From: an uncultured Alphaproteobacteria bacterium
Lineage (GTDB): Bacteria; Pseudomonadota; Alphaproteobacteria; VGEJ01
Direction: 5' to 3'
Assembly (NCBI GenBank): GCA_913041535.1
Contig: CAJWJK010000002.1
Location: 138,793-202,792 of the forward strand
DNA: 64,000 nucleotides
Shown: positions 5,899 to 48,096 of the stretch, one piece after another
Position numbering within the stretch: the stretch's first letter is position 1
Layout of the letters: the number at the start of each line of letters is the position of its first letter
The notes under the pieces: generated by a model
What the model saw: only the letters and a program-made list of their open reading frames with translations
Databases searched by the model: none
What the model was told of the DNA's origin: nothing
Position numbers and translations under genes: made by a program

Positions 5899-5908
5899 GA
5901 CCCGTATA

Positions 5909-12080: not shown

Positions 12081-12090
12081 ATATGGAGGT

Positions 12091-12633: not shown

Positions 12634-12689
12634 CTCGGCGCTTTGTTGATAAAAAGCCAATCCCAACTAATAGTCTGCAATGTTTCACC

Positions 12690-25412: not shown

Positions 25413-25447
25413 CGACTGCCTTTTTTTATTGGCAGTTTGTTTGTCCC
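25413..25447 (+). terminator. Expression-platform hairpin with a U-rich tail (likely an intrinsic terminator controlled by the riboswitch)
   Basis: GGCGACTGCC-tttttttatt-GGCAGT is followed by TTGTTTGT, directly 3' of aptamer 2. Confidence 0.4.
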
Positions 25448-25466
25448 TTTGTGCCATGGAGGCAGC

Positions 25467-30405: not shown

Positions 30406-31284
30406 ATGCCACGTTTGATGTTGACTTTACATAAATTTGCGGCGGCCAAGCTCAACTTGTACTTGCACGTGGTTGGTCGAAACCACGATGGCTACCATGA
30501 AATTGACAGTTTGGTGGTCTGGCTAGATGTGGGCGATAAACTTACTTTTTCGCTCGCAGATGATCTAAAGCTAGAGGTTAGCGGACCGTTTGCAAACGAA
30601 GTAGGCCCCAAAGAAGATAATCTAGTAGTACAGGCTGCAGAATACCTTCGTAAGTCCTGTTCAATAAGATTAGGAGCAAAGATTCATCTTGATAAGCAAT
30701 TGCCCGTAGGTGCAGGTATGGGTGGGGGCTCTTCCGATGCAGCAGCTGCGCTTCGGGCTCTCATGGAGCTATGGAAATGCGATCCAGGGGAGTTAAACAT
30801 GGATGCTCTTGTACGCTCGCTCGGTGCCGATGTGCCAGCTTGTATGATTGGTGCTCCGGCGCTAGTGAGTGGTGTGGGAGAAAGAGTCGTCCGATTACCA
30901 GAGTTGCCTATAATGCATGTTGTATTAGTTTGGCCAGGTGTCAAACTGGCAACATCGAGGGTGTTTGCTGCGCACCAAGTTAAGGACTCAAATAAACCAC
31001 TACGAATCAGTGACCTAGAGAGACGTGACAATTATCTAAAAGCACTATTGGATCGCAGCAATAATCTGCAAATTACTGCTCAGGGGCTATGTTCCGAAAT
31101 TGGCAAGGCATTGCAACTTCTAGCTTCTACAAAAGGTTGTGTTTTATCACGCATGAGCGGGAGCGGCTCAGCCTGTTTTGGTCTTTTTGAAACCAAGGAA
31201 GAGGCTCAAGGTGCAGCACTTTATATTTTGAAAAAGCGTCCTAGTTGGTGGGTAAGGGCTACACGACTTCGGAGTGAGACTTGA
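30406..31284 (+). CDS. ispE: 4-diphosphocytidyl-2-C-methyl-D-erythritol kinase
   Basis: AKLNLYLHVVGRNHDGYHEI is the N-terminal motif. PVGAGMGGGSSDAAAAL is the GHMP kinase ATP-binding motif. Confidence 0.9.
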   Translation: MPRLMLTLHKFAAAKLNLYLHVVGRNHDGYHEIDSLVVWLDVGDKLTFSLADDLKLEVSGPFANEVGPKEDNLVVQAAEYLRKSCSIRLGAKIHLDKQLPVGAGMGGGSSDAAAALRALMELWKCDPGELNMDALVRSLGADVPACMIGAPALVSGVGERVVRLPELPIMHVVLVWPGVKLATSRVFAAHQVKDSNKPLRISDLERRDNYLKALLDRSNNLQITAQGLCSEIGKALQLLASTKGCVLSRMSGSGSACFGLFETKEEAQGAALYILKKRPSWWVRATRLRSET

Positions 31285-32114
31285 TGGTGATTAAGGCACT
31301 CAGTACCGTACAATCGGTTAAATCGTTGCAAACAGTATCAGTGGTTCTTGGGCTGTTCCTATGTCTCTCTACACTATTGGGCTGTGGGCTGTCTGGAGAA
31401 CGTGGCGCGGATCTTGAACGTACGTTTGACCATGCAGTTATTGCCATACCAGCCACACGTTACACCGGTGTTGTGGTTGGAACTATCAAAGATTTTTCTG
31501 CTCTCAATGCAGAGGCACGTAAGTACCCTATAGTACTCTACATTCACGGTTGTACCGGAATCGGCAACTACACGTTCATTAGGGCCCTTGCTAGGAACGG
31601 ATATGTGGTGATTGCTCCGAATAGCATGGCGCGTCGTTTTCGTCCGTTACAGTGTAATCCTCGGACCAATACTGGTGGCCATAATCTCTTTGTGTATGAC
31701 TTTCGTCGTGCAGAAATCACATATGCTCTACACAGAATGCGTCAGTATGACTGGGTGAATTGGCAGGAATTGTTTTTGGTAGGTACCAGTGAAGGAGGCG
31801 TGGCGGCTGCCTTATATCGTGGAGATGAATTTCGTGCGCGAGTGATTACTCAATGGACGTGTGTCGGAGCTCCTCTCGTGCGGGGTATTGGCGCTCCGCC
31901 GGAGACACCAATGCTTGCAATCGTTCAAGGAGAAGACCCATGGTATGACCCCGCCCGTACTACAGGACAACGAGGGGATTGCGGACTATTTATGGCTGGG
32001 CGTCCGGGGTCAAGGTCGATCATACTAAATGATGGCTCAGGTCATGATGTGTTTAAAAGCCCCGATGTTGTGCAGGAAATTCTGAGGTTTCTAGAGATAA
32101 ATCGGATGGGCTAG
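31281..32114 (+). CDS. Lipoprotein with an alpha/beta-hydrolase (dienelactone hydrolase-like) fold
   Basis: It has a signal peptide with a lipobox (LLGCG). GTSEGG is a nucleophile-elbow GxSxG motif. LYIHGCTG follows an oxyanion-like region. Its ATGA overlaps the ispE stop. Confidence 0.5.
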   Translation: MMVIKALSTVQSVKSLQTVSVVLGLFLCLSTLLGCGLSGERGADLERTFDHAVIAIPATRYTGVVVGTIKDFSALNAEARKYPIVLYIHGCTGIGNYTFIRALARNGYVVIAPNSMARRFRPLQCNPRTNTGGHNLFVYDFRRAEITYALHRMRQYDWVNWQELFLVGTSEGGVAAALYRGDEFRARVITQWTCVGAPLVRGIGAPPETPMLAIVQGEDPWYDPARTTGQRGDCGLFMAGRPGSRSIILNDGSGHDVFKSPDVVQEILRFLEINRMG

Positions 32115-32132
32115 GCTTTGTTCTCTCAAAGG

Positions 32133-32930
32133 TTAGTGTTCATTAACCACTGCACTTTTAAGATCAATCCTGATGGGTGCAATTATTGCAATCGCCTTTA
32201 ATTGGACAGGAATTAGTGGGGAGTTATTGAGGATTGATGCAAACCAAACTGAAACTGTTTCAGGGTCCTCTGTGCGGGGCAGCCAGGGCTTTGATGAAAA
32301 GCCAGCGATCCGCTCCAACGTAATGTCAATTCTTGTCGCGGGACCGTGATAAGCGGGGGTGTTCACATTTTCAATACCAATACTGTTAATCTGCAGATTG
32401 TAACGCCGCCGTCCATCGAACACTTTGAGTTCTCTCTCTAAACCAGCTGGGAGAATTGTGGTGGTAATATCGAGAGCAGCACTAAGGGGATCGATCGTCA
32501 TCCCGACGAGTTTGGGGGGCACTGAATCCCTTCCATCTTTAGCCGCGGTTGGGATTGCTGTGACTAACGGATATTGCCAATCGGAGTAATTTATTCTGAC
32601 TTTTCGGTAGGCCCCCAACCAATAATTATCGGCGCGGTGTTTCAGTGGCCTAAATTCCCTGTTCTCTACAATGCCTTCTGTGACTGCCTTAGAGGTAAAG
32701 CCAATCATGAAATCAAATAGTCCGACAGTTTTAGAATGGCTGGTTAATTTGTACCTGTCGTTAACAATGTCGGCAGTTAGAGCGAACTCATTAGCATGTA
32801 TTCCGCCAAGAAATAGGTGATAGGTCAAAAAGAATTCTTTTGCGGATGACGGTGATACGAACAGGAACAAAAAAAGGACCGTGAGACATTTTCTCGAAAA
32901 CAGACAGAAAAGAGCATTGTGATGAACCAT
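32133..32930 (-). CDS. Exported hypothetical protein
   Basis: A signal-peptide-like N-terminus (MVHHNALFCLFSRKCLTVLFLFLFVSPSSA) begins at the internal Met at 32930. The ORF-track start at 33050 adds 40 aa with no signal character. Confidence 0.4.
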   Translation of the reverse strand: MVHHNALFCLFSRKCLTVLFLFLFVSPSSAKEFFLTYHLFLGGIHANEFALTADIVNDRYKLTSHSKTVGLFDFMIGFTSKAVTEGIVENREFRPLKHRADNYWLGAYRKVRINYSDWQYPLVTAIPTAAKDGRDSVPPKLVGMTIDPLSAALDITTTILPAGLERELKVFDGRRRYNLQINSIGIENVNTPAYHGPATRIDITLERIAGFSSKPWLPRTEDPETVSVWFASILNNSPLIPVQLKAIAIIAPIRIDLKSAVVNEH

Positions 32931-33233
32931 AGCTATGCTTGGTCTATGCTGTGTGAACCCAAAGGTATTGGCGACGTGTCTTAAGAATCTACTGCGTGAT
33001 GACATAAGGCAAGGTGTTGCATAATTAACACAGAAACATTTTCCTGCCAAATATTGGTAGCAAGACGTTGCTAAACTCGACGAACAGGCTTATTAAACTT
33101 GGCAGATGTTTTGGTTTCCATGATATTTTTAGGGTTCTAGGGCATTAAATTTTTGAATTCCTGCCGAACCGCCTTGCGGTTTTTGGCAAAGGTGTTTAAT
33201 GTATCGTTGTGTTTTTGCGGGAGGTGCGCGGAG

Positions 33234-33500
33234 ATGTTGGCGAGAAAACAAATTAAGGCGCTAGCGTTAGGAGCTGCGTTAGTGATAGCACCAGCGGTCG
33301 GTTATGCACAGTCGCAGTCTGAACAGACTGGGCTGGGTAGTGCTGCGGGTCAGGAAGAAGTTGGGTTGCTGGGGGGTCTTTCGTCAGGAACTATAGCTAC
33401 TGCAGCAGTGGCGGCCGCGGTGGCCGTTGCGGTGGCAGCAGCGTTGGCTGATGACTCGGCGACTACGACGGGCGTCACGACTGGACCTCCTACGAACTAA
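33234..33500 (+). CDS. Small secreted Ala/Gly/Thr-rich protein, YjbE/GfcA-like
   Basis: The ATG at 33234 is preceded by GGGAGG. It has a signal peptide (ALALGAALVIAPAVGYA|Q) and then low-complexity A/S/T/G-rich sequence. That resembles the E. coli YjbE and GfcA threonine-rich exoproteins that head yjb and gfc operons. Confidence 0.45.
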   Translation: MLARKQIKALALGAALVIAPAVGYAQSQSEQTGLGSAAGQEEVGLLGGLSSGTIATAAVAAAVAVAVAAALADDSATTTGVTTGPPTN

Positions 33501-33560
33501 TACGGATTGCGGGTAGGGGCTAGCTAGTAGCAGCTCCGCCGTAGTGTTGGTTATGTTGAC

Positions 33561-33590
33561 AAACGGCCCTTTTGGGCCGTTTGTTTATGC
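33561..33590. terminator. Intrinsic-terminator-like GC hairpin between convergent genes
   Basis: AAACGGCCC-tttt-GGGCCGTTT is followed by GTTTAT on the plus strand. It sits between the 33234..33500 gene and the stop of the minus-strand 33585..34322 gene. Confidence 0.5.
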
Positions 33591-34322
33591 GGCAGGCTTT
33601 AACACCTCAATATCAATTGGTGGATATTCTTTGACGATGTGTTGTCGGCTTTTCCAGATAAAGCCATCATATGCATCTGCCCAGTAATAGTTGTCGAAAT
33701 GCCAGCGCATGGTTTGGGCGCTGTTGCGCTCTCGGACTAGTACTGTATCGAATTTGAGTTCGAGGATGGTTATAGTGACTTTTTTTACGGTCTCAAATAC
33801 AGAGGTGATTGGCACCCCGTAACGGTTCTCAGCATCAATATCTATTGTCCGTGTGAATCGTGTGTTAGGAGATAGTTCATGTAGCTGTCCGGAGACTGGG
33901 TCGCGCACATTCATGTAAGTATTTTTGATATTGCGGGGCAATCCAGCTGTTTTGACGAGTCGGCCCTGACGTGTAACAACTGCAACACGGTCCGCTGATA
34001 CGTAATGGAGGTCTTGCCCATCGTACCGGCTGAGGACTAAAAGTGAACGCTCGCCTTTACCAATCTTTGCCAGGACAGTTGCGTATGGTAGCTTTGTTAT
34101 GTCGTCTCGATGTATAGGGATATCGGGTTTGCCAAATACAGCGTACTGCATAGCGTCGGGCAGGTTGGCTAGGACGGGGATTTTGAAAGAGTCTCCGCAT
34201 CCTGCAGCTAGCATACCTACGCCTGACAGTAAGGCCATGCGTCTCGTTAGATTAAAGTGTGAGGGGAGATAATTATGCACCGAAAATCCAAACAATGGTT
34301 GAAAGGCATTGACAAAAGCCAT
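33585..34322 (-). CDS. YjbF/GfcB-family lipoprotein (group-4-capsule-type polysaccharide lipoprotein)
   Basis: The lipobox reads MLAAGC. The conserved core ...LPYATVLAKIGKGERSLLVLSRYDGQDLHYVSADRVAVVTRQGRLVKTAGL... resembles YjbF/GfcB. The start is ambiguous between Met1 at 34322 (an RR n-region, which would overlap the divergent gene) and Met29 at 34238. Confidence 0.55.
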   Translation of the reverse strand: MAFVNAFQPLFGFSVHNYLPSHFNLTRRMALLSGVGMLAAGCGDSFKIPVLANLPDAMQYAVFGKPDIPIHRDDITKLPYATVLAKIGKGERSLLVLSRYDGQDLHYVSADRVAVVTRQGRLVKTAGLPRNIKNTYMNVRDPVSGQLHELSPNTRFTRTIDIDAENRYGVPITSVFETVKKVTITILELKFDTVLVRERNSAQTMRWHFDNYYWADAYDGFIWKSRQHIVKEYPPIDIEVLKPAA

Positions 34323-37163
34323 ATTAGCCGATGTTTGGCCGTTATGGTGATCATAATGACATTTAGTTTGGTTACCAGTTTTGGCCTAGAGGCTCAGGAA
34401 GAGTCGGGCACACTTGAAGAATTTCTAGATAAACTGGAGGATTTGCAGAAAGATAGCATCGGAATGCCTTCACTTGAGGGCGGTTCTCCTTTGGATAAAA
34501 GTAGAGAAAAGTCAATTGATAGGAGTTTGGATCGCAATTCCATTGTAGGACGTCAGCGCAATATTGAGCGAGAACAAACTCTCGGTGGCTTCACAATGCG
34601 TGAGCAGTTTCTCATCCAGAAATTCTGTGATGGCACAATTAAGGATGAAGACGTACAGGTTGTGAGATTCTTTTCGCGCTTTTCACGGCTTGAGCAGGAC
34701 TATTGTCAACGTGTAGATCACTCACTATTCCAGTTTGGCTATAACCTATTTACTCTGGAGACTGACACCTCTGATGTGTTGCAGATCGGCGCGATTGGGG
34801 ATGATTACGTAGTAGGCATTGGTGATGAGTTTATAATAAGTTTTCAAGGTCCGAATTCCCAAACAATTACTAGACGTGTTGATCGTGAAGGTAGGTTGAT
34901 ACTTCAGGACCTTGGCGCAATACCCACCGTCGGGCGAGCTTTTAGCGAAGTCCGTAAGGACATTGAGGACAGGACCGAGAGTGTTCTTCTTGGAACGACC
35001 GTAATGGTATCCATCGGGGCAGTGCGTGAGCTCTCAGTTACTGTTGCAGGGGAAGTTGTAGTGCCAGGTACGTATACGCTTTCGAGCCTGTCAACGATGA
35101 TGGATGCATTAAGCAGTGCTGGAGGAATTCGTAAAACTGGTAGTTTGAGGACAATACAGGTAAAGCGTGGTGATTTAGTATTTTGGGTAGACGTTTATGA
35201 CCTGCACTTCGGCGCCTCAATGTCCAGCGATGTTCCATTGTATGACGGTGATTATATTACTGTACCCTTGATTGGGGCTACTGTTGCTGTTTCAGGTAAT
35301 GTTATGAGACCCGGTATATATGAATTGCCAGAAGGATCCAGCACGCTGCAAATAAAAGATTTATTGGATCTATCTGGCGGTACCTTGAGGCCTCGAGGAT
35401 ACCGACTTTCTCGTATCACCTTCGATGCAATAGGTCGCCAACTGATAGTTGAACAGACCGATGATGGCGCTGATCTAACGGACGGGGATATTTTGGTTGT
35501 TAATAGGCGTGAGGATGTTCAGTTAGGCGCAGTTGAGCTGATTGGGCATGTGAAAGTCCCTGGCTGGCGTGCTCTATCCAGTGCGCAAACCGCACGGGCT
35601 TTGATTCGTGATAATAATAGCCTGGAGGACAATCCTTATTTGTTATTCGCAGTAATTGAGACTTCTGACCCTGTCACTCAGGCAAGACGCATGTTCCCAA
35701 TAAGCCTTCTTTCAATCCTTGCGTCGCGAAGGGATTTTAAATTGAGAGATGGAGATAAACTTATTGTATTGAGCAACGAAGATATTCGCTATTTGTCGTC
35801 TCGAGATGTACAAGGAATCATTAGTGTAACACATACGGGAGAGAGAATTGGTTTAGATGGCTTGGCGAAGAGAACGTCGCCACTAAGCCTAGATCGAAGA
35901 AGGCTAGCGGAGACGTTGGTTGCAAATGCCCAGAAAAAACAGGATGTAAATCGTGAATCTACCTCAGACTCAGATGGTAATAGTGACAAGATAGGCGGTG
36001 ATGAGTGTGAAGGCCGTAAAAGGCTTGCGGCACTGGTTGCCCAATCACGACCCGGGCGCTTTGCAAGTGCGGTTCGTGCGGTGGGTTCTAGTCCTAATCA
36101 AAAAGACTTTGTTGATATGGAATGTCCTGCGATATTTCATAACTACCCCGACCTTCTTCCTCTCGCACTTGAACACGTCGCCTCAGTTAATGGAGAAGTG
36201 CGAATTCCAGGGCCTTATCCGGTACTACCAGAAACATCTCTTTCCCATATTCTGTCCGTAGTTGGTGGTACAACGAGAGCTGCGGATCTGGCAAGAGTAG
36301 AAATTCAACGGGGCTCTGGTTCAGGACGGTCAACAAGAGACGTAATAGATTTAGCTAGAGTTGAAACACGTAATGTCTCTTTGGGGCCTGGCGATTCTAT
36401 TAGATTTAGCCAAGTATTCACCGATCGTGATAATGGTCCAGTAGAAATCACCGGAGAAGTTGCGAAGCCAGGTTTCTACCATATTCGTCGCGGGGAAAGG
36501 CTTTCAGAACTTGTTGCAAGGGCTGGTGGCATGACACCGCAAGCCTACCCCTTAGGGGCTATATTCACCCGCGATCGTGTTCGGCAGGCACAACAAATTG
36601 GCTATGAGAGAGCTGCTCGAGAGCTAAACGCCTCTTTGGCTATAGCGGCGGCTCAAGAGGAGGTGAACCCTGTTGCGCTATCACAGGTCTTTGAAATGTT
36701 GTCTGAGCTAAATACGGTTCAGGCACTTGGTCGGGTGGTAATTGAAGCTGATCCAACTGTTCTCCAAGTAAGACCTGAATTAGATAGTGTTTTAGAGCCC
36801 GGGGATAAACTTTTTGTTCCTAAACGCCCCAGTTCCGTCCTTGTCATTGGTGATGTATTAAGTCCAGGAGCACTCCAGTTTATTTCAGGGACGAAGGTAG
36901 ACCAGTATATTAGACAAGCGGGAGGTTTCCAGAGGTCAGCTGATGAGGATCGGGTTTTTTTAGTTTATCCAAACGGGGAGGCGCAACCGGTTGCAGTTAG
37001 TGTCTGGAACTACACACCAGTTCAGGTTCCGCCTGGCAGCACGATCGTTGTGCCGAAGGATCCGGCTCCACTCAACATATTCCAAATAACTAAGGAATTT
37101 GCGCAAGTTGTAAGTCAGCTAGCCATAACTGCCGCGTCCCTAGCGGTGATTGGTAACAATTAA
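34275..37163 (+). CDS. Giant outer-membrane polysaccharide export (OPX) protein, Wza/GfcE-like, with a Poly_export domain and multiple SLBB domains
   Basis: 962 aa. The start is supported by GAGGGGAG. It has a signal sequence and a Poly_export-like segment (IGDEFIISFQGPNSQTITRRVDREGRLILQDLGAIPTVG). Four or five beta-grasp SLBB-like repeats follow (G-V-PG-Y-L...L..AGG). The C-terminal amphipathic helix LNIFQITKEFAQVVSQLAITAASLAVIG resembles the Wza outer-membrane helix. Confidence 0.7.
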   Translation: MHRKSKQWLKGIDKSHISRCLAVMVIIMTFSLVTSFGLEAQEESGTLEEFLDKLEDLQKDSIGMPSLEGGSPLDKSREKSIDRSLDRNSIVGRQRNIEREQTLGGFTMREQFLIQKFCDGTIKDEDVQVVRFFSRFSRLEQDYCQRVDHSLFQFGYNLFTLETDTSDVLQIGAIGDDYVVGIGDEFIISFQGPNSQTITRRVDREGRLILQDLGAIPTVGRAFSEVRKDIEDRTESVLLGTTVMVSIGAVRELSVTVAGEVVVPGTYTLSSLSTMMDALSSAGGIRKTGSLRTIQVKRGDLVFWVDVYDLHFGASMSSDVPLYDGDYITVPLIGATVAVSGNVMRPGIYELPEGSSTLQIKDLLDLSGGTLRPRGYRLSRITFDAIGRQLIVEQTDDGADLTDGDILVVNRREDVQLGAVELIGHVKVPGWRALSSAQTARALIRDNNSLEDNPYLLFAVIETSDPVTQARRMFPISLLSILASRRDFKLRDGDKLIVLSNEDIRYLSSRDVQGIISVTHTGERIGLDGLAKRTSPLSLDRRRLAETLVANAQKKQDVNRESTSDSDGNSDKIGGDECEGRKRLAALVAQSRPGRFASAVRAVGSSPNQKDFVDMECPAIFHNYPDLLPLALEHVASVNGEVRIPGPYPVLPETSLSHILSVVGGTTRAADLARVEIQRGSGSGRSTRDVIDLARVETRNVSLGPGDSIRFSQVFTDRDNGPVEITGEVAKPGFYHIRRGERLSELVARAGGMTPQAYPLGAIFTRDRVRQAQQIGYERAARELNASLAIAAAQEEVNPVALSQVFEMLSELNTVQALGRVVIEADPTVLQVRPELDSVLEPGDKLFVPKRPSSVLVIGDVLSPGALQFISGTKVDQYIRQAGGFQRSADEDRVFLVYPNGEAQPVAVSVWNYTPVQVPPGSTIVVPKDPAPLNIFQITKEFAQVVSQLAITAASLAVIGNN

Positions 37164-40128
37164 TCCGCATAACGACGGCAAGAGAGCTAGAAGAATGTGC
37201 GTGATTGTAAAACACGCTTTTCAAGTATTCCTGATAGTAGTTCTAGGAATTGGCGTGCTCAGGCTAACTTCTGTGGCGTCAGCGGAAGAGTTCTATATTC
37301 CATCGGTCAACAATTTTGGCGGTGTTGGCCTTATGATGACGAGGACTGCGCGTTTTGGAGCTGATGGAGAATTTGCAATCGGGTTCTCGGAGATAGATCC
37401 GTATCGGCGATATTTTATCACAGTTCAAGCTCTGCCATGGCTTGAGGCCACATTTCGCTACTCTGATCTAACAAAGATCCCCTTGGGAGGAGATACTTTT
37501 AAGGATCGGGGTGCGGACCTCAAATTTAAGTTATTGAACGAACAGAAGTACATACCAGCAGTAGCATTAGGCCTACAGGATGGTATTGGCACGGGCTTGT
37601 TTGATGGAGAATATATTGTCGCAAGTAAGAGGTATATGGATTTAGATTTCTCTCTAGGTATTGGATGGGGCTATCTGGGTACTCGCGGTGATATCAAGAA
37701 CCCATTGAGTCTTGTAACAACTTATTTTGATAACAGAGATGCAAATTCTGGTCGTGGCGGTAAATTTAATCCCGCTAATTACTTCTCTGGCAAGAGAGCG
37801 TCTCTTTTTGGGGGAGTGGAGTATTTCACACCTATTGATGGGTTGACCCTCAAAGTAGAGTACGAAGGCAATGATTATTCTGATGAGCCCCGTACAGAGT
37901 TTGGCAACAAAGTAGCTGTTGCAACATCGCCAATAAACTTTGGCATAAATTATAGACCGTTCTCGTGGCTTGATATCGCTGCTGGCCGTGAGCGGGGTTA
38001 TGAAGGTGTGGTCCGTATGGCTATGAGAGCAAACTTCCACACATCTAAAACACCGAAGTTTGATCTACCTCCCGTGCCTTTAAAATCTCGTATGGCAGTC
38101 AAACAGAAAGCAGCGCATGATTCTCTACCAGCCATCGAGGATGTTACGTCAACGCTGAATGATGACTTTGCGATAATAGGACTTAACGTAGATTCTGTTG
38201 AGTTTACCAATCAGAAGGTATTTGTGCGTGTATCGGATGTTATAGACCGTGTGTCGGATTCGGAATTGATACGGGCAGCGCATAGCGCATCGAACGCTTT
38301 TAGCGATGCCGTATCGTCCGTAACTATAATAGGGTCTGATTCGCTTGATGGTATAGAAACGGTTTCATATACAGCATCGGAGCTAACGCAGTTTCAAATT
38401 GTCGATTACTTATTTGATGATCTGGATAAATATGGAGTAGAGGCAGTTGAGTTATCTCACACTGAAGCACAGGTATATCTTAACTCTAGCCTCTCTCGAG
38501 TAGAACAGGAGAAGGCGGCGCTGGCAGTTGTCACAGTCGCCCCTACGCCCTTAGAAAAGGTCACATTTGTCAATATTTCGGACGATCAGGTGTTTAATCG
38601 TTTAACTATATCACGAAAGGAGATCACCAGATCATCACTTGTGAATCAGATGTTTGATGGACTTGAGGAGATGGGATTCTCTGTTGAGGCCGTAGACGTT
38701 TCAGAGGGCGCGGCTACCGTGACTGTTATGTCTAAAACAAATGTTAGCGCGGAGGTGTATCGTCGCGCAGCATGGATTGTTGCTGATTCGGTTGTCTCTT
38801 CAGTCGAAGAGGTAACACTTGTCGGACTGGAAAATGGCCGTGAGATAGAACGTATAACTGTGTTAGCGAGCAGTGACAGCTATGTTGGAGTTAATTCAGG
38901 TAGTAGCGTCATAGACGTATCTAGCATTGAATCTGCGGATGATATCTTTGACGAACTAGCCCAACAGGGTGCACAGGTTGATGCGTTACACTTTACACCT
39001 ACTCGCGCTACGGTATTTGTCACTCCGACCCGTTTTCGGGAGGCAGCACGAAATATTGGGCGGCCGGCTAGGGTTATAGCAAACAGCGCTCCTGCTACGG
39101 TTGAGCAAATATCAATCGTTACTATGGCCGATGGTATGCCCATTAACCATGTAACATTAATGCGCCGTGATCTTGAACGGGCTGTTTCTCGTGAGGGCAG
39201 TGTTGAAGAGTTATGGAAGCAGGCGGAAATGAATGGTGGAGCTGAAGTTCCACAAACTTCCGTGGTCCCGGCGCAAAGATACCCATCATTTAATTGGAGT
39301 TTAACGCCGAATACTCGACAGTACATACATGATGAGGCTCAATTCCTACTGTATCAGTTATTTGCAAGGCTAAATGGAACTCTTGAATATAGTAGGGGGT
39401 TGAGTTTCGAGGGCACCTTATTTGCTAATCTCTATAATAACTTTGAAAAGGCCAGCACAGATTCAAATAGTCTGTTACCAAGGGTACGTAGTGAAATTGT
39501 TAAGTATCTTCAAGGTACGGATAACAAGATCCTTCGGCTTACTGCAAACTATCGTTTTTCGCCAAAGACTGATGTTTATGCACGTGTCTCAGGTGGCATT
39601 TACGAAGAAATGTTTGGGGGCATTGGCGCGGAGGTGCTTTATAGGCCCTTCGGATCACGTTGGGCTATTGGAGCTGATGTTAACCGAGTAAAACAGCGTG
39701 ATTTCCAAGGGGGGTTTGGGTTCTTCGATTATGAAGTAACGACCGGACATGCAAATATCCACTATCAGTTGCCCGTTTATGACATGTCTGCTGCGGTGTA
39801 TCTTGGCCAGTACTTAGCAGGTGATAGAGGCGCTTCATATTTTGTTTGGCGAAATTTTGAAAATGGTATGTCCGTTGGGGGATGGGTGACGCTAACTAAT
39901 GTTCCAGCGAATGTCTTCGGGGAAGGAAGTTTTGATAAGGGGTTTTTCATTCGGATACCGTTCGACGTATTTCTTATGAAATCAACACGAAAGTCCGGTG
40001 TCTTTTCTTTCCAGCCCTTATCGCGGGACGGGGGTCAAATATTGTTAGGCAGCAAACAGCTCTACGAGCTTACTCGAAGTGGAAGTCTTGGTGAACTTTC
40101 TCGAGATTGGGGCTTGGTATTACACTAG
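37150..40128 (+). CDS. YjbH/GfcD-family outer-membrane protein with an internal insertion of four tandem modules
   Basis: 992 aa. The N-terminus (...FYIPSVNNFGGVGLMMTRTARFGADGEFAIGFSEIDPYRRYFITVQALPWLEATFRYSDL...KDRGADLKFKLL...PAVALGLQDGIGTGLFDGEYIVASKRY...GIGWGYLG) matches the YjbH family. The C-terminus is rich in aromatic and Gly residues, consistent with a beta-barrel. The middle region holds four modules of about 87 aa. Confidence 0.7.
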   Translation: MVTINPHNDGKRARRMCVIVKHAFQVFLIVVLGIGVLRLTSVASAEEFYIPSVNNFGGVGLMMTRTARFGADGEFAIGFSEIDPYRRYFITVQALPWLEATFRYSDLTKIPLGGDTFKDRGADLKFKLLNEQKYIPAVALGLQDGIGTGLFDGEYIVASKRYMDLDFSLGIGWGYLGTRGDIKNPLSLVTTYFDNRDANSGRGGKFNPANYFSGKRASLFGGVEYFTPIDGLTLKVEYEGNDYSDEPRTEFGNKVAVATSPINFGINYRPFSWLDIAAGRERGYEGVVRMAMRANFHTSKTPKFDLPPVPLKSRMAVKQKAAHDSLPAIEDVTSTLNDDFAIIGLNVDSVEFTNQKVFVRVSDVIDRVSDSELIRAAHSASNAFSDAVSSVTIIGSDSLDGIETVSYTASELTQFQIVDYLFDDLDKYGVEAVELSHTEAQVYLNSSLSRVEQEKAALAVVTVAPTPLEKVTFVNISDDQVFNRLTISRKEITRSSLVNQMFDGLEEMGFSVEAVDVSEGAATVTVMSKTNVSAEVYRRAAWIVADSVVSSVEEVTLVGLENGREIERITVLASSDSYVGVNSGSSVIDVSSIESADDIFDELAQQGAQVDALHFTPTRATVFVTPTRFREAARNIGRPARVIANSAPATVEQISIVTMADGMPINHVTLMRRDLERAVSREGSVEELWKQAEMNGGAEVPQTSVVPAQRYPSFNWSLTPNTRQYIHDEAQFLLYQLFARLNGTLEYSRGLSFEGTLFANLYNNFEKASTDSNSLLPRVRSEIVKYLQGTDNKILRLTANYRFSPKTDVYARVSGGIYEEMFGGIGAEVLYRPFGSRWAIGADVNRVKQRDFQGGFGFFDYEVTTGHANIHYQLPVYDMSAAVYLGQYLAGDRGASYFVWRNFENGMSVGGWVTLTNVPANVFGEGSFDKGFFIRIPFDVFLMKSTRKSGVFSFQPLSRDGGQILLGSKQLYELTRSGSLGELSRDWGLVLH

Positions 40129-40130
40129 TT

Positions 40131-41282
40131 TTAAGAAGGACGAGACAAACTCTCGTAGACTTTCTGATACATTTCGACAACGTTATTAATAGAGTAGTGT
40201 TCGGTGGCCCGTTGTCGCGCTAATCTTCCCAGGTGGTTCTGATTTTTGCGGATTTTCTCAAGTAGTTTTAGGCAGGCGTTTGCCATGAGTTTAGGGTCCC
40301 TGGGGGGGACTGAAAACCCAGTTGTATCCACGATTTGTCGAGAATCGCCAACGTCAGTAGTAACGCAAGGTACCCCAGATGCCATTGCTTCAACTAGTAC
40401 ATTTGGAAAGGCCTCTCCGTGCGAGGATGCGACAGCAACGATGTCCAATGCAGACATTATCTTGGGCATATCATTTCGGATGCCAAGTAGGGAGACTCGA
40501 TCTTCAAGGTGGTATTTATATACCCAATCCTTCAGTTGTTGGTTTTTAAAAGAGATGTTTTCCCCACAAAAGAGATAACGCACGCTATCGTGCTGTCGGG
40601 ACATAATTTCTGCTGAGCTAAGAAAACCTTCGTGATCTTTCTGTGAGTGAAAACGCCCAATTAATCCTATCAGTGGCTGTTCAGGCCCTATGCCAAGTTG
40701 AAGGCGCATACGTTCTCTAGAAGCTAGGTCAGGTTTAAACTTCTCTATATCTACACCGTTAGGAATTATTTTAAACTTGTTAGACGGGTAACCAAGTTCT
40801 ACATGAATGTCTCGCGCAGTTTCTGAATTACATATGATCTTTTGTGGTACCCAACGGGATAGTAATGCACAAGTCCGTGCAGTGAGTATGGTGCTGCGCT
40901 TATCAGTCTTGGGGTTTAAATCAGCATGTCGGATATTCCAAACTATATTGTTCTGGCGTGCTAAGCGGCCAGCTATACCCCCAACGAGATCCGCGTGATA
41001 TAGCCATGTTTGTACCACATCGGGTTTTTGTTTTCTGATGTGGTTTACTAGTTTACTTACGCTTAATGCGGCGGCGGGACCGTGGCTCATATTTAAGGCA
41101 TTCACTGACATTCCTAGTTCTTGAAACCTTCTTCCTAATGTATTGAGGTCGTTTAAAGAGGTAACGCTCTGCTGGTATTTGAAAGGATCAAGGCGCTCGA
41201 GAAGATGAGAGAGCATCGTTTGGGCGCCGCCAATTGGGAGGCCGGTAATGACGTGATGAATTTTTTGGGGCCTTAAGCGCAT
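40131..41282 (-). CDS. Glycosyltransferase family 4 (GT-B)
   Basis: 383 aa. The C-terminal EAFPNVLVEAMASGVPCVTTDVG is an E-x7-E-like GT4 motif. Confidence 0.8.
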   Translation of the reverse strand: MRLRPQKIHHVITGLPIGGAQTMLSHLLERLDPFKYQQSVTSLNDLNTLGRRFQELGMSVNALNMSHGPAAALSVSKLVNHIRKQKPDVVQTWLYHADLVGGIAGRLARQNNIVWNIRHADLNPKTDKRSTILTARTCALLSRWVPQKIICNSETARDIHVELGYPSNKFKIIPNGVDIEKFKPDLASRERMRLQLGIGPEQPLIGLIGRFHSQKDHEGFLSSAEIMSRQHDSVRYLFCGENISFKNQQLKDWVYKYHLEDRVSLLGIRNDMPKIMSALDIVAVASSHGEAFPNVLVEAMASGVPCVTTDVGDSRQIVDTTGFSVPPRDPKLMANACLKLLEKIRKNQNHLGRLARQRATEHYSINNVVEMYQKVYESLSRPS

Positions 41283-41384
41283 TGGCGAACCGTTTGTATG
41301 TTTGTCTGGTTGAGTAATTTAACTATATTGGCACTCTGTAGATTGTTTGTTAATGCATACTTTGGAGGTTACTACCGTTATACC

Positions 41385-42347
41385 ATGCAGCGCTCAAATC
41401 CCAACCTAGGAAGTCAGCCGGTTGAACAGGTCGTTCGTGCTGACGATGTAATAGACCTAAGGTACCTGTTCAGAAGCTGGTGGAGGGGAAGCTGGTTTAT
41501 TATTTTAGCTGCGTTGGCAGGCTTGGCGGTCGGTCTATGGGAGATGACGAAATTTCAACCTATGTATACTGCAGTTATGTTGGTATCTCCGGCTGGTGGA
41601 ACTGACGGAGGTGGTCCCGATTTAAGCGGATTAAAAAGTTTTGCGGCGGTTTTTGGAGTTGGCGGTAGCAGCGGGACCGAAGGTGGTACGGGTAGCTCGT
41701 TCGATCGTTTCGAAGTCCTTCTTGGATCTGTAATTTTGGCTGAACGGCTGCAAGAACGGTATGGTTTGCTCCAGACTGTGTACCGAGGTGCGTGGGATCC
41801 TGATGCACAGGACTGGATCCGGCCGTCGGGCACGCGGTTTGAGCGGAATGAGGCGTTGAGAGAATTCTTCAAGCTTCGAACGTGGAAGGCGCCCAGTATC
41901 TCGTCTCTTGCCCGGTTTATAGGATCAACTGTAAGAGTTGTCACACTTCAGGCAAATGGATTCCGTCAAGTCTCTGTTGTGCATGAGGATCCTCAGTTTG
42001 CAGAGTATTTATTGAGAACTGTCTATTATGAAGCAGATGAGCTTTTACGTGAGCTAGACCAAGAGAGTACGAGGACCCAGAAGCAATACCTTGAGAATAA
42101 AATAGCGACTAGCAAGATCGTTGAGATTCGTACCGGCCTAGTAGGCCTACTGATGCAACAAGAGAATAAGGCAATGCTTTTGCAAAGTGATGCGCCATAC
42201 GCCGCATACATCATTCAGCCGATTAGCGTAGGTAACAGGCCAACGGCGCCAAGCCCGCGGATGTATGCAGGAGCAGGTGTTGCGGTCGGGGCATTTATAG
42301 GACTTTTAGTTGTTTCATTCATATCGATGTTTCGTCGCGAGACTTAA
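41385..42347 (+). CDS. Wzz-like polysaccharide co-polymerase / chain-length determinant (PCP without a kinase domain)
   Basis: The N-terminus IDLRYLFRSWWRGSWFIILAALAGLAVGLW is the Wzz motif plus TM1. A coiled periplasmic region follows. The C-terminus is Pro-rich and carries TM2 (PISVGNRPTAPSP...GVAVGAFIGLLVVSFI). An alternative start is the TTG at 41298. Confidence 0.55.
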   Translation: MQRSNPNLGSQPVEQVVRADDVIDLRYLFRSWWRGSWFIILAALAGLAVGLWEMTKFQPMYTAVMLVSPAGGTDGGGPDLSGLKSFAAVFGVGGSSGTEGGTGSSFDRFEVLLGSVILAERLQERYGLLQTVYRGAWDPDAQDWIRPSGTRFERNEALREFFKLRTWKAPSISSLARFIGSTVRVVTLQANGFRQVSVVHEDPQFAEYLLRTVYYEADELLRELDQESTRTQKQYLENKIATSKIVEIRTGLVGLLMQQENKAMLLQSDAPYAAYIIQPISVGNRPTAPSPRMYAGAGVAVGAFIGLLVVSFISMFRRET

Positions 42348-42371
42348 GGTGACGGTCTACTGGTCCACCCC

Positions 42372-43484
42372 ATGACCTTTAGTTGGAGTATCTTCTTTGT
42401 TTTTCTTTTTCTGTATCGCTGCTTTGTATCCATCATTGCACAATCATCAGTGCAAGAGCTCGGTGATGCTAGTCTGTATCAGCGTGGCGGACGAACTGTG
42501 GGATCAGGGTTTTCGGCCTTGCTTTACGAGGGTCAATCCTTCAATGTGTCAGCCTTTCGGCACATAGGAACGCATGTTACTGAATCGATAGGTACTTTAT
42601 TAAGTATAGCCGGTGGTGGTAATGCGTACCTCACCAATTTGGGTTTTCAAACAATAGCGTTTGTGGGCTTGGTTAAACTGTTGATGTCAGTCGAGCCAAG
42701 CATTCGTCGTTGGTTAGCTCTCGTTTTGATTCTGCCGTCATTTAACTTCTGGACATCAATAGCTTCGAAAGAGGCATTGGTGACGCTCTGCATTTGCATG
42801 ATACTCGCGAACTATGTTCGTATGCAAAAACTTCAGAAGGTTAGAATTATTTCATTAGCAATATTCTCTATCCTTCTCGCTCTTTTGAAACCTCACTATT
42901 TTATTGCCGTAGCTTATCTTTTCGGCGCGACAGTCTTAGCACAAAGGTTTCGGCAGCGTGGAGTTGTGGCTTTATCTGCTGCAGTGATGTCTTTAGCCAT
43001 GTTATACCCAATTGCTACGTTTTTAGATAAGCAAGCTCGCGTAATTGCTACCCACTTCAGAGTTAGTGATAATACTCTTACTAGAGAAATCTATTTTGTA
43101 CATGAGCTGGATATCCTTTTTAAGGCGCCATACGGAATGTTTCAAAGTTTCTTTGGTCCAACAGTGTCCGAGGCTGTTTCAGGTACTCTCGCGATGATGT
43201 CTTTCATCGAAAGCTTATTTCTTGTGGGACTTCTGTTGATGATGATATTGCATCGATTTTGGGATATTCGAGCATTTGAAGCAATTATTGGCTCCGTTAC
43301 GTTGTTTTGGATTTTATTTGTCACTTATCCATTTGGGATTATGAATCCTGGTTCAGCGGTGAGGTACCGGTCGGGGTATCTAGTGCTAGTAGTGTTTGTG
43401 GTTATTTTTGTCTTTGTCCGAGGATTCAATGAGCGTGAAAAGACCACGAGGAGTAGCATGAAAACACCTGCTCTTGCTGAGTGA
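42372..43484 (+). CDS. Polytopic membrane protein, candidate polysaccharide polymerase (Wzy/EpsG-like)
   Basis: 370 aa with about 9 or 10 predicted transmembrane segments. It has no nucleotide-binding motif. It lies between the Wzz-like gene and the glycosyltransferases. The assignment is by context only. Confidence 0.35.
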   Translation: MTFSWSIFFVFLFLYRCFVSIIAQSSVQELGDASLYQRGGRTVGSGFSALLYEGQSFNVSAFRHIGTHVTESIGTLLSIAGGGNAYLTNLGFQTIAFVGLVKLLMSVEPSIRRWLALVLILPSFNFWTSIASKEALVTLCICMILANYVRMQKLQKVRIISLAIFSILLALLKPHYFIAVAYLFGATVLAQRFRQRGVVALSAAVMSLAMLYPIATFLDKQARVIATHFRVSDNTLTREIYFVHELDILFKAPYGMFQSFFGPTVSEAVSGTLAMMSFIESLFLVGLLLMMILHRFWDIRAFEAIIGSVTLFWILFVTYPFGIMNPGSAVRYRSGYLVLVVFVVIFVFVRGFNEREKTTRSSMKTPALAE

Positions 43485-43525
43485 TAGATGACGTGTAACT
43501 CCTAGTCTGTGGGCATTGGTGCATT

Positions 43526-44284
43526 GTGTCAGTAGAAAGTATTTTAAAAAACGCTTTTCGTCCTGGTTATTTTCCAGTGTTAACGACGAAGATATGGACG
43601 CGGATTGTAGAGGTTCGTCTGCATCATGACAGAGTTAGGGCGAAGACGTGGTGCCATGAAAATGCAGTGGACGTTACAACATTTACAACCATAAAGGATC
43701 CTAATCTTTGGAAGGAGAGTCTTGAGTATGCATCTGTCCTAGGCAGTGAAGCGGAAATAAAGCTGCGACACCTTGATGTTGAACTTGGCGGTGGGGGGTT
43801 TGTAGAACTTGTATACTTTCTTACGCGTCTTTTGCGTCCAACAATCATAGTTGAGACGGGAGTCGCAGCCGGATTCACTACCCAAGTGATACTCGAGGCT
43901 CTATCCCGTAACGGTAGTGGCTATCTATATAGTAGCGATTTTCCTTATTTTCGACTAAGAGATCCAGAAAAGTATATTGGGGTATTAGTGGATGACTCAT
44001 TAAAGAGTCGATGGGAATTGCTTACAAGGGGAGATAGGGAGAATTTGAAAAATATCACTGAACATATCGATCATATTGATATATTTCACTATGATTCCGA
44101 TAAGTCTTATCGCGGTAGAGCTATTGCCCTTGACATAGTCAAAAACTATCTGAAACCAGGAAGTGTACTAATCATGGATGATATTGATGACAATCTCTAT
44201 TTTCGTGATTTCGTTTACCATCTAAAGTGTAAGTACTACGTTTTTCCATGCAAACAGAAGTACGTAGGACTGGCGTTTATCTAG
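43526..44284 (+). CDS. Class I SAM-dependent O-methyltransferase (TylF/Methyltransf_24-like)
   Basis: IVETGVAAGFTT is motif I. FHYDSDKSYRG...GSVLIMDDI resembles the FIDADHSY...DD pattern of sugar O-methyltransferases. Confidence 0.5.
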   Translation: MSVESILKNAFRPGYFPVLTTKIWTRIVEVRLHHDRVRAKTWCHENAVDVTTFTTIKDPNLWKESLEYASVLGSEAEIKLRHLDVELGGGGFVELVYFLTRLLRPTIIVETGVAAGFTTQVILEALSRNGSGYLYSSDFPYFRLRDPEKYIGVLVDDSLKSRWELLTRGDRENLKNITEHIDHIDIFHYDSDKSYRGRAIALDIVKNYLKPGSVLIMDDIDDNLYFRDFVYHLKCKYYVFPCKQKYVGLAFI

Positions 44285-44317
44285 AATGCGGTGTGAACAT
44301 CCTGCCGTGCATATTAG

Positions 44318-45397
44318 ATGAGGATTCGGGTGGTTTTCATACTTCCGTCGTATGCAGGAGGCGGAGCACAAAGGGTGTTGCTAACGCTTCTATCTGGTCT
44401 AGATAGAGACATATTTGAGCCTGTTCTGATAGTATTAAAAGACGAAGGTCCCTTGGTCGACCTGTGTCCTGCTGAGGTGACTACTGTGGTGATTGGTCGT
44501 CATCGTGCGCGTACGGCCGCGGTTGCACTTCTTGGAGTGCTAAGGCGTTTAAAACCAGCAGTCGTATTTTCAACCTTTAGTCATATAAATGTATTGATTC
44601 TCCTGATGCGACCAGCATTATTTGGATGCCCACGAATTGTTGTTCGAGAGCCTAACACTCCGTCGGAGAGTCTGCCACGTCAGGCTTACGGCAGACTTCT
44701 GAGTCTAGGGTACAGAGTACTCTATCGTCATGCAGATCGCGTAATTTGTCCTTCAGACCGTATCGCTAAAGAGATAGAGGAGGTGTTTAGTGTGCCTAGC
44801 AGGCGGGTTGTTCGACTATGCAATCCTGTCGATATTATTACGGTTCGTAGCCGAATCGCTGGGCCCATCGAAACATCTAATAACGGTTACACCTTTGTTG
44901 GGGCTGGCCAATTAATTCCGCAGAAGGGCTTTGAACGTTTGATATCTCTATTTGCTCAAATGCCGGAGAATACTACGTTGATAATATTGGGTGAGGGGCC
45001 CATGGATAGAGAGTTAAAACGGTTAATTGAAGGTTTACGGTTAAATAGCCGTGTGCAACTACTCGGTTTTCAATCGTGTCCCTGGCCTTTTTATGCCAGA
45101 GCAGACGCATTTCTTTTGCCTTCTCGTTGGGAAGGAATGCCAAATGTGGCATTGGAGGCTCTAGCATGTGGAACACCGGTTATTGCAACCCCCGAATCGG
45201 GCGGAATAGAGGAATTGAAAGATAAAGCTGTTAAAGGTGCAGTCAGTATCGCAAGTTTTGAACAGGATTTTCTTCATGCTATGATTGAATGTACGGCGAG
45301 GCCGCGTATGGCACTTCCACGCCCATCCTTGTTGCCAAATGAATATTGCATGTCACACGTTTTGAATAGGTTTTCCGATATCCTTACGATACCGTAA
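44318..45397 (+). CDS. Glycosyltransferase family 4
   Basis: PSRWEGMPNVALEALACGTPVIAT is the GT4 E-x7-E region. The N-terminus is Gly-rich (GGGAQRV). Confidence 0.8.
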   Translation: MRIRVVFILPSYAGGGAQRVLLTLLSGLDRDIFEPVLIVLKDEGPLVDLCPAEVTTVVIGRHRARTAAVALLGVLRRLKPAVVFSTFSHINVLILLMRPALFGCPRIVVREPNTPSESLPRQAYGRLLSLGYRVLYRHADRVICPSDRIAKEIEEVFSVPSRRVVRLCNPVDIITVRSRIAGPIETSNNGYTFVGAGQLIPQKGFERLISLFAQMPENTTLIILGEGPMDRELKRLIEGLRLNSRVQLLGFQSCPWPFYARADAFLLPSRWEGMPNVALEALACGTPVIATPESGGIEELKDKAVKGAVSIASFEQDFLHAMIECTARPRMALPRPSLLPNEYCMSHVLNRFSDILTIP

Positions 45398-45422
45398 GCG
45401 TGACAGCGAGTTTGGATTCTTT

Positions 45423-46169
45423 ATGATAATTTCTCATAAACATAAGTTCATTTTCATTAAAACCCGAAAGACTGCGGGGACCTCTCTGGAGGTAGCGTTA
45501 TGCAAATATCTTGGTAAGAGTGATATTATTACGCCAATCAGTCCAGAAGATGAAAATACACGTCGTGCCATGGGCTTTATAGCAAGGCAAAACTACAAGA
45601 AATCAATATCAGAGTTCAGAGTAAATGATTTAGTTTATGTGGCGCGTCGTATGCGCAATAGGATGATAGGAAAGCATGGGACATCTTCTGGTGTATGGCC
45701 TTCGCAGTTTTACAATCATATGCCATCGCATCTTGTCCGCGACCAAATAGGCATAGCCATATGGAATCGCTATTACAAATTCTCTATAGAGAGAAACCCT
45801 TGGGATGCAGCAGTATCCCGATACTTTTGGCACTACGGCAATAAGAAGATTTCGCACACAAAGGATAGATTCCGGAATTTCATCCAGAGCGAAATTGGTA
45901 GTCATGTACCAAACTACGATCTTTATAGCATTAATGGAGTGCCAGCGATGGACCTAGTCGTACGGTATGAGGCCCTCTTTTCTGGATTGGAGAAAGTATC
46001 TAGGGTTATTGGATTGTCCGAAAATATTCACGAAGTGATGAAGGAAATAAGGGCAAAAGCACAATTTCGTAGAAACGTTGATTATCGGGAAATGTATGAT
46101 GAGGATAGCAGAATGTTGATTGCCAAACACTTTGCCCGAGAAATATCGTTATTTGGTTATGTATTTTAA
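45423..46169 (+). CDS. Sulfotransferase-family protein (PAPS-dependent, carbohydrate sulfotransferase-like)
   Basis: KFIFIKTRKTAGTSLE is a 5'-PSB-like P-loop. ERNPWDAAVSRYF is a 3'-PB-like R-x-P...S motif. Confidence 0.55.
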   Translation: MIISHKHKFIFIKTRKTAGTSLEVALCKYLGKSDIITPISPEDENTRRAMGFIARQNYKKSISEFRVNDLVYVARRMRNRMIGKHGTSSGVWPSQFYNHMPSHLVRDQIGIAIWNRYYKFSIERNPWDAAVSRYFWHYGNKKISHTKDRFRNFIQSEIGSHVPNYDLYSINGVPAMDLVVRYEALFSGLEKVSRVIGLSENIHEVMKEIRAKAQFRRNVDYREMYDEDSRMLIAKHFAREISLFGYVF

Positions 46170-46174
46170 CGGCC

Positions 46175-47311
46175 TTAACGTTGGATCAGTGTGTCATAGA
46201 TCGCCTCAATACATTTAACGTGATTTTCTGATGAGTGTTGCTGCTCTAGTAGAGCTCGTTCTTCCTCTGGTACACGAGATTCGCGATTAAGAAGAACCTG
46301 AGTTGCGGTAGCAAATGCGTCAGCATCATCGGGGGCGGCAAGATATCCACGATCATTATTAGTGACGATCTCTTGGTGACCACCAGAGTTCGAGGCGACT
46401 ACAGGTGTTCCACATAACAATGCTTCAATTACGGCGCGCCCATAACCCTCCAACACTGCTGGAGCGAGCAAAACATCAAAGGCTGATAGCCAAGGCTCGA
46501 TAGGATATTTATGGCCAATACAAAATACATTTCTTTCGATACGGAGGCGTTTGGCAAGTAATTGAGCATCAGATAGCTTGCCCCCACGATCATCACCGAC
46601 CATAACGAAAATTATCTTGCTTTGATTCTGTGCTAAAAGGTGTGCCGCCTTGACAAACATCAATGGGCGTTTCTGGTGTGTCATGTTGCCTACGAAACCA
46701 ATTACGGATGCAGGGGGGGCAATGCCAAGGTTATGCAGTAGCTGTGCTTTAGCTTCCTCATGGGGTAGGGATTGATACTTTGCAAAAGGATCAGGCACTA
46801 TAGTTGCACGTCCGTGTCCAGAAGCTGGCAGCGTCTCTCTAACTGTATGAGAGATTGACACAATATGGTTGCTCGCAGAACAAAGGATTTTCCATAAAGG
46901 AGAACCAGATACTACAAGGCGTTGGTGCCAGACAAAACGAGCCGTTGCCAAACGCGTCGGGAACGGCCACGTTAAGTTCATCCTAAGGTCGTTGCTGTGG
47001 ACAATATCAATTTTATTGTCCCGCAAAAACCCGTACAAGGTCGGGGTGGTCCGTGCAATTGATGCAGCAATGTCGACTATTTTGGGTGTTGTTCCTGCAA
47101 AGCACGGAATATTCAGAAATCTATGATTTATGGATTCCTTTGTCAAAAAGTGTCGGAGAGGTCCATCTTTGTGAAGGATAACTATCGGTTCAAATCGTTG
47201 GCGGTCAATATTTTGGATGAGTAGAGCAGCGGAGATATGGCTGCCACCCACTGAATCTCCAACAAAGGGAAAACATATTCTGGTTTTAGGTGGATGACGA
47301 TACTGAGTCAC
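46175..47311 (-). CDS. Glycosyltransferase family 4
   Basis: APAVLEGYGRAVIEALLCGTPVVASNSGG is the GT4 motif. Confidence 0.8.
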   Translation of the reverse strand: MTQYRHPPKTRICFPFVGDSVGGSHISAALLIQNIDRQRFEPIVILHKDGPLRHFLTKESINHRFLNIPCFAGTTPKIVDIAASIARTTPTLYGFLRDNKIDIVHSNDLRMNLTWPFPTRLATARFVWHQRLVVSGSPLWKILCSASNHIVSISHTVRETLPASGHGRATIVPDPFAKYQSLPHEEAKAQLLHNLGIAPPASVIGFVGNMTHQKRPLMFVKAAHLLAQNQSKIIFVMVGDDRGGKLSDAQLLAKRLRIERNVFCIGHKYPIEPWLSAFDVLLAPAVLEGYGRAVIEALLCGTPVVASNSGGHQEIVTNNDRGYLAAPDDADAFATATQVLLNRESRVPEEERALLEQQHSSENHVKCIEAIYDTLIQR

Positions 47312-47364
47312 GGTCTTCTAGCTCAAATGTTATTGGCTGTTCGGTTGCTATACGGAACTAGTGC

Positions 47365-48054: not shown

Positions 48055-48096
48055 TATCGTGGAAGGAATATCTGTTTTGGAACGGTTGATTGTGTA

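Follow-up and report, generated by a model that had tools for sequence, protein, structure and literature searches.

The locus described here lies in a window of 64,000 nucleotides (nt) from an uncultured Alphaproteobacteria bacterium (positions 138,793 to 202,792 of contig CAJWJK010000002.1) and is centred on an open reading frame (ORF) at 37150-40128 on the forward strand, which encodes a protein of the YjbH/GfcD family, 992 aa long if the first TTG is used. E. coli GfcD (YmcA) and YjbH, which belong to the group 4 capsule and yjbEFGH exopolysaccharide systems, are outer-membrane proteins with two barrels. The 992-aa protein belongs to the same family by its match to PF06082 (687.9 bits where the cut-off is 24; E 2.5e-206) and by BLASTP identities of 36% and 35% to the two barrel halves of E. 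coli YjbH, and the N-terminal 12-stranded FapF-like barrel of the family is present. The PF06082 alignment is broken into two stretches by extra modules. The second of these stretches covers aa 598-976 and opens at profile position 275, which would suggest that there is extra material just before the middle region of the family. Indeed, four consecutive modules of ~80-90 aa each occupy aa 329-683. The features of the protein, with the module boundaries taken from the AlphaFold2 model, are:

37150..40128, forward strand: YjbH/GfcD-family outer-membrane protein (PF06082 and identity to E. coli YjbH)
37303..38037, forward strand: N-terminal beta-barrel, aa ~52-296
38038-38133: linker with several prolines, aa 297-328, between the N-terminal barrel and module M1
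38134..38409, forward strand: M1, aa 329-420, the most divergent copy, net charge -9; AlphaFold2 elements are helix 329-342, strands 347-353 and 356-361, helix 370-383, strands 390-394 and 404-408
38410..38649, forward strand: M2, aa 421-500, net charge -5
38650..38874, forward strand: M3, aa 501-575, net charge -8
38875-38916: linker between M3 and M4, aa 576-589, low model confidence
38917..39198, forward strand: M4, aa 590-683, net charge +1, motif ATVFVTPtRFRxxARNxGRxARVxAN
39226..40125, forward strand: C-terminal beta-barrel plus C-terminal tail, aa ~693-992

The original prediction, made from the sequence, had placed four tandem modules in the middle of this YjbH-like protein, and this is upheld by Smith-Waterman comparisons, by hidden Markov models (HMMs) and by the AlphaFold2 model. 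The motifs that open the modules are located at aa 336, 421, 501, and 599. Pairwise Smith-Waterman z-scores, calibrated on 500 shuffles, are 8.9 for M2 with M3, 13.6 for M2 with M4, and 14.4 for M3 with M4; those involving M1 are 6.8 with M4, 3.4 with M3, and 2.0 with M2. An HMM made from the last modules of other proteins only, with the window protein and close relatives of it left out, gives 107.6 bits for M4, 38.4 for M3, and 20.8 for M2. The top score among 1000 shuffled decoys is 6.3 bits, and therefore M2 to M4 are clearly homologous by sequence. In the case of M1, the score of 4.4 bits is below that of the best decoy and the module is undetected by this model; it is backed by an HMM of mixed modules (40 bits), by orthologues at the same position, and by its AlphaFold2 element order at pLDDT 83-95.

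Identity between the modules is ~20-26%, which is why self-BLASTP of the 992-aa protein, returning the self-match only, and Tandem Repeats Finder, returning no DNA repeats at the array, are both blind to it. The internal repeats are detected by the shuffle-calibrated Smith-Waterman comparisons and the HMMs, where self-BLASTP does not find them. A recent duplication was also considered, and was rejected on the Tandem Repeats Finder result. The array had been put at 38155-39198, that is aa 336-683; its end is right, and its start is ~7 residues earlier in the model, at aa 329.

A single-module AlphaFold2 model of M4, from an alignment of 100 modules, has a mean pLDDT of 90.5 and the element order alpha1-beta1-beta2-alpha2-beta3-beta4-alpha3. 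The model of the full-length protein (pLDDT 89.1, pTM 0.74) has an identical order of elements in all four modules, with the barrel strands at aa 74-295 and 713-954. In this model a single continuous helix bridges M1 and M2 (aa 409-426) and another bridges M2 and M3 (aa 489-507), while aa 576-587, before M4, have pLDDT below 50 and are predicted to be a disordered linker. M1 to M3 are tightly spaced, at 8 aa, and between them and M4 there is a linker of ~14-30 aa. Among homologues the extra modules are spaced by a median of 8 residues, with a linker of ~33 residues before the last module. The extra modules are acidic, at -9, -5, and -8 for M1 to M3 here and with means of -3 to -4 in homologues. 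The last module is neutral to slightly basic across homologues, is the best conserved, and carries a specific Arg-rich motif, TPxxFRQxARNxGRAARVVAN, that is missing from M1 to M3.

The modules can be traced to a domain that the family already has. A segment of E. coli K-12 YjbH at ~aa 308-387 aligns by BLASTP to both M1 and M4, with M4 pairing with aa 328-387. When the module HMM is run on the E. coli proteins, YjbH has exactly one copy (aa 314-380), as does GfcD (aa 315-383). Taken alone, M4 hits PF06082 at positions 277-360 (E 6.9e-11), and M3 has a weak match at positions 278-350 (E 0.046). With the threshold relaxed to E <= 10, YjbH is still the sole Pfam family that any module matches. 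The alpha/beta middle domain that in this family lies between the barrels is thus present four times rather than once, and the array has arisen by amplification of a middle domain native to the family and is not a foreign insert. That the modules are tandem copies of the YjbH/GfcD periplasmic middle domain can be held with high confidence, and M4 is the ancestral copy, orthologous to the single GfcD-M domain of E. coli. It had been stated that E. coli YjbH and GfcD have no such array, which is correct; that the modules were inserted is not, since the E. coli proteins own one copy each and M4 corresponds to PF06082 positions 277-360. Likewise, the roughly 300 extra residues ascribed to the modules are mostly accounted for, with the three extra copies (aa 329-589) making up ~260 of the 294 residues by which the protein exceeds its 698-aa E. 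coli counterparts.

The middle region of GfcD has been described as a predicted periplasmic alpha/beta domain by Larson et al. (PMC8592465), and a 2024 simulation study, which named it GfcD-M, put it by the periplasmic opening of the C-terminal barrel, which is laterally gated (PMC11494523). By homology to this published domain, the proposed periplasmic location of the modules is most likely correct. The same domain was labelled "SLBB-like" by Saidi et al. (PMC9603273) and, by Solan et al. (PMC8346858), a "globular peptidoglycan-binding domain". When the modules were compared with SLBB/beta-grasp families there was no match, and none to OmpA-like, LysM, SPOR, or PG_binding families at E <= 10. 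A PDB sequence search with the whole protein gave no real matches, one with the module profile gave spurious matches only (designed armadillo repeats), and a Foldseek search of the module against the PDB gave none at E <= 1e-3.

Comparison with orthologues, which had been proposed as a check, shows that the number of modules varies from 1 to 4. The scan covered 122 sequences, made up of the window protein, E. coli YjbH, and the 120 homologous clusters that rank best. A module HMM, which undercounts divergent extra copies, counts four modules in 51 of them, three in another 28, two in 30, and a single one in 13. Protein length rises with the count, being ~700 aa with one module, 820-930 aa with two, 900-1030 aa with three, and 975-1100 aa with four. 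The distance from the N-terminal barrel to the last module is multimodal, at ~35, 160, 240, and 345 aa, and stays within ~374 aa, so five copies are unsupported; indeed, no protein with five or more modules was found among the homologues and the profile matches listed. The module profile has 452 matches at E <= 1e-3 in 1.84 billion representative proteins, with at most four module stretches per protein among the 150 matches listed. Every match examined is YjbH or a fragment of YjbH, the short ones covering profile positions ~180-470. PF26490, which is listed for one homologue (P0054) in a precomputed table, was not reproduced with a Pfam scan.

Among named genomes, four-module proteins are found in Rhodospirillaceae and in unclassified alphaproteobacterial metagenome-assembled genomes (L007, L008, L009, L011), and single modules in Rhodobacterales isolates (Phaeobacter, Rhodovulum) and gammaproteobacteria (Halopseudomonas, Celerinatantimonas, Nevskia). 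The best homologues of the window protein are from metagenome-assembled genomes of Alphaproteobacteria and Rhodospirillaceae and from marine metagenomes, and include a fragment that is 100% identical to it from an independent Tara Oceans assembly (P0001). The identical fragment makes a marine alphaproteobacterium the probable source of the window. Across 50 four-module proteins, the nearest module in other proteins occupies the equivalent position in 193 of 200 cases, and the nearest is within the same protein in none of the 200. For M2, position 2 is the nearest neighbour in 48 of 50. In all 71 of the one-, two-, and three-module proteins the last module is most like position 4, and the extra modules of the two- and three-module proteins have no clean mapping to a single position. 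The position-specific orthology, together with the lack of a DNA-level repeat, indicates that the duplications are old. The four-module variant is real, old, and widespread, and is common in uncultured Alphaproteobacteria.

At its 5' end, yjbH as listed from the TTG begins within the upstream gene, with a 14-nt overlap at the stop of the latter (window 37150-37197). A more probable start is the ATG at 37195, giving a protein of 977 aa, since it has AAGAGAG, a purine-rich stretch, 5' and a sequence resembling a signal peptide 3'. The signal peptide is probably cleaved at VASA|EE, with the predicted site at aa 45 (nt 37284).

Two neighbouring genes encode the proposed partners of the protein:

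34275..37163, forward strand: periplasmic polysaccharide-export (OPX) protein of 962 aa with Poly_export, 5 SLBB stretches, and Caps_syn_GfcC_C (Pfam), the GfcC-like module being fused at its C-terminus; directly before yjbH
33585..34322, reverse strand: YjbF/GfcB-family lipoprotein (PF11102 YjbF, E 3.8e-46), divergently transcribed

The last 232 aa of the OPX protein share 30% identity with E. coli YjbG (E 1e-13), and homologues of both GfcB/YjbF and GfcC/YjbG are nearby, as is usual for the family. Its make-up agrees with what Saidi et al. 2022 call a "class 2 OPX with integrated GfcC module", and the protein terminates in a hydrophobic or amphipathic tail (…QVVSQLAITAASLAVIGNN). As listed, the yjbF and OPX ORFs overlap by 48 nt at their 5' ends (window 34275-34322), and at least one of the true starts is therefore probably further downstream.

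The OPX gene is also upstream of yjbH at four other loci (L002, L003, L005, L006), with the YjbF gene kept at the equivalent position in the first three. The trio of YjbF, OPX, and yjbH is seen with homologues of one, two, and four modules; at L006, where there are three, OPX is present with no adjacent YjbF. On both sides of the OPX-yjbH pair in L006 there are IS66-family transposase genes (1-231 and 10945-13281). In L002, on a 2.9-Mb contig with a homologue that is 49% identical, the gene order of window 30406-37163 is kept at 3189-9983, the shared upstream order being a GHMP kinase, a ~270-aa protein without assigned function, DUF3108 (reverse strand), YjbF (reverse strand), and OPX.

Downstream of yjbH, 40131-50013 is a polysaccharide-modification cluster, containing two GT4 glycosyltransferases, a Wzz-like protein, and Methyltransf_24 and FkbM-type methyltransferases, as well as a weak match to a sulfotransferase family (E 4e-4). 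The polysaccharide product of the cluster may be methylated or sulfated. A role for the protein in capsule or exopolysaccharide export is predicted from this context, with its glycosyltransferases, Wzz-like protein, and methyltransferases. Between the Wzz-like and methyltransferase genes is a 370-aa, very hydrophobic ORF with no Pfam matches (42372-43484, forward strand), which may be a Wzy-type polymerase or other membrane protein. The GC content of the cluster, at 44-46%, is slightly under that of the rest of the window (46-49%). Elsewhere in the window, two adjacent glycine riboswitch aptamers (RF00504, 67.2 and 34.9 bits) are present at 25208-25408 on the forward strand in the classic tandem arrangement, with an ORF (25365-26582) and the gene for the glycine cleavage P-protein (27011-29914) downstream.

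Overall, the best explanation of the array, and one favoured with moderate confidence, is that it consists of old copies of the middle domain, three of which may form a periplasmic docking arm. By analogy with the published GfcD models, M4 would be at the periplasmic mouth of the C-terminal barrel, and the N- and C-terminal barrels would fix the two ends of the array to the outer membrane. M1 to M3 would then hang in the periplasm as a semi-rigid arm, flexibly tethered to M4, an arrangement that is most likely given the continuous helices between these modules, the flexible tether, and the membrane anchorage of both ends. Such an arm may enlarge the surface on which the YjbF/GfcB lipoprotein could dock, along with the GfcC-like module that the 962-aa OPX protein carries, and this docking would hold the periplasmic export channel beside the two-barrel outer-membrane protein. 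In E. coli, the GfcB-GfcC heterodimer binds GfcD with a dissociation constant (KD) of 9-28 uM (PMC8592465), and the authors of that study speculate that the contact is with GfcD's periplasmic middle domain. A docking role specifically for M1 to M3, towards YjbF and the OPX::GfcC protein, can be suggested only tentatively, from this analogy and from the position of the YjbF and OPX::GfcC genes beside yjbH here and at homologous loci.

Several observations weigh against a docking arm. The rod-like arrangement of M1 to M3 is inferred solely from the continuity of predicted secondary structure. In addition, M1 of the window protein is without the LFDxLE helix motif and the conserved Pro that are typical of position 1 elsewhere. 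The strongest objection comes from the length of the partner. The OPX::GfcC protein is 947 aa beside one module, 990 aa beside two, 1191 aa beside three, and 957 and 962 aa beside four, and module number has no clear relation to its size (Spearman rho 0.46, p = 0.09, n = 15, from an incomplete scan that covered the forward strand with a single-sequence query). As the partner is ~900-1190 aa at any module count, the extra modules are not simply extending together with it, and since one-module proteins work with a like partner, M1 to M3 are accessory.

It is also possible, though unlikely, that the extra modules are a substrate-handling chain, binding polysaccharide or a lipid anchor and passing it to the laterally gated C-terminal barrel. 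In simulations a loop of the GfcD middle domain touches lipid A near the entrance of this barrel, where a regulation of exit has been suggested (PMC11494523), and the locus does encode glycosyltransferases and proteins like Wzz and sulfotransferases. However, the strongly acidic character of M1 to M3 (-9, -5, -8) would be unfavourable for anionic lipids and for acidic or sulfated polymers, and the Arg-rich motif of M4 is absent from them.

Less likely again is a tether or spacer that binds peptidoglycan, in which copy number would set the distance from barrel to cell wall. The quantised copy number of 1-4 across lineages is spacer-like, and the label given by Solan et al. (PMC8346858) would agree with this; in the accessible part of that paper, however, the label comes without supporting evidence, and no module matches OmpA-like, LysM, SPOR, or PG_binding families at the threshold used above. 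Also improbable is the case in which M1 to M3 are a rigid acidic rod with the copy number (1-4) as a lineage-specific ruler, linking the exporter directly to the cell wall or to the Wzz-like co-polymerase of the inner membrane, so that YjbH would itself be the trans-periplasmic connector in an export route parallel to the Wza-type channel.

Multiple gates or plugs that control the opening of the C-terminal barrel are more doubtful still. For the lone middle domain, gating has been put forward in the two papers on GfcD (PMC8592465, PMC11494523), but the mouth of the barrel has room for one domain, for which the conserved, barrel-proximal M4 is the obvious candidate, and M1 to M3 are beyond a flexible linker with a charge and a motif set other than those of M4.

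The original prediction had also raised POTRA-like domains, and tandem periplasmic alpha/beta modules of ~80 aa on an outer-membrane barrel are indeed the arrangement in BamA, TamA, and FhaC; this is very improbable here, being contradicted by the topology, which is alpha-beta-beta-alpha-beta-beta rather than beta-alpha-alpha-beta-beta. Finally, the pattern could be an artefact of low-complexity sequence, of an unstable repeat of recent origin, or of duplication in the assembly, with which the absence of an internal self-BLASTP match would agree; this has a negligible chance of being correct and is refuted by the lack of a DNA repeat in Tandem Repeats Finder, by modules of such low identity having position-specific orthologues in ~50 other proteins, by the confident predicted fold, and by the identical fragment from the independent assembly.

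No account of YjbH/GfcD proteins with more than one middle domain, and no experimental structure of GfcD, turned up in full-text literature searches, and the papers that define the architecture of the family mention a single middle domain. The multiple copies have apparently been unremarked until now, and do not make this a new kind of system. Within export of the group 4 capsule type, no component is less well understood than GfcD/YjbH, and the function of its middle domain has no experimental assignment. The series here presents that domain as an independent unit that can be duplicated, made up of a conserved copy adjacent to the barrel and up to three acidic accessory copies, and the natural range from one to four modules would be useful for testing what the middle domain binds and whether its reach is relevant. 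The Pfam model PF06082 treats the entire protein as one family, and its match consequently splits in two on multi-module proteins; a separate model for the middle domain would annotate these correctly.

Of the folds to which the module can be compared, it shares the alpha-beta-beta-alpha-beta core of the two-layer sandwich of ring-building motif and BON type. The comparison-table values are 6.8 for the pilotin AspS, ~6 for the C-terminal domains of CDF transporters, 6.1 for SpoIIIAH (ring-building motif), 5.3 for EscJ, 5.2 each for PrgK and PrgH (ring-building motif), and 4.7 for OsmY and 4.6 for DolP (both BON). The module differs from the ring-building motif, BON, CDF, and AspS domains in having an additional fourth strand and a C-terminal helix, and it is not a member of Pfam BON, with YjbH the sole family matched at E <= 10. 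E. coli GfcD is monomeric in detergent (PMC8592465). The POTRA chains of BamA, TamA, and FhaC are likewise small periplasmic domains on an outer-membrane barrel, with a variable copy number, but the order of the fold differs, neither structural nor profile similarity to known POTRA domains was found, and the array in the window protein lies between two barrels, with both ends at the membrane.

The closest comparison is with the E. coli proteins and their relatives. The cluster of alphaproteobacterial YjbH described by Solan et al. 2021 as "537 proteins" comes from the same class as the homologues found here, of which 51 of the 122 sequences scanned have four modules; the accessible part of that paper (PMC8346858) describes no extra middle domains, in comparison with the copy number of 1 to 4 seen here. 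Like the window protein, E. coli GfcD (YmcA) and YjbH match PF06082 and have the order N-terminal barrel, periplasmic middle domain, C-terminal barrel, and in both cases a YjbF/GfcB lipoprotein and a GfcC-like sequence are adjacent. In E. coli the GfcC-like partner is a separate protein of 245 aa, whereas here it is fused to the 962-aa multi-SLBB OPX protein, and yjbF is divergently transcribed in the window, unlike in E. coli. The difference within the protein itself is that there are four middle domains in place of the one in E. coli, which adds ~260 residues.

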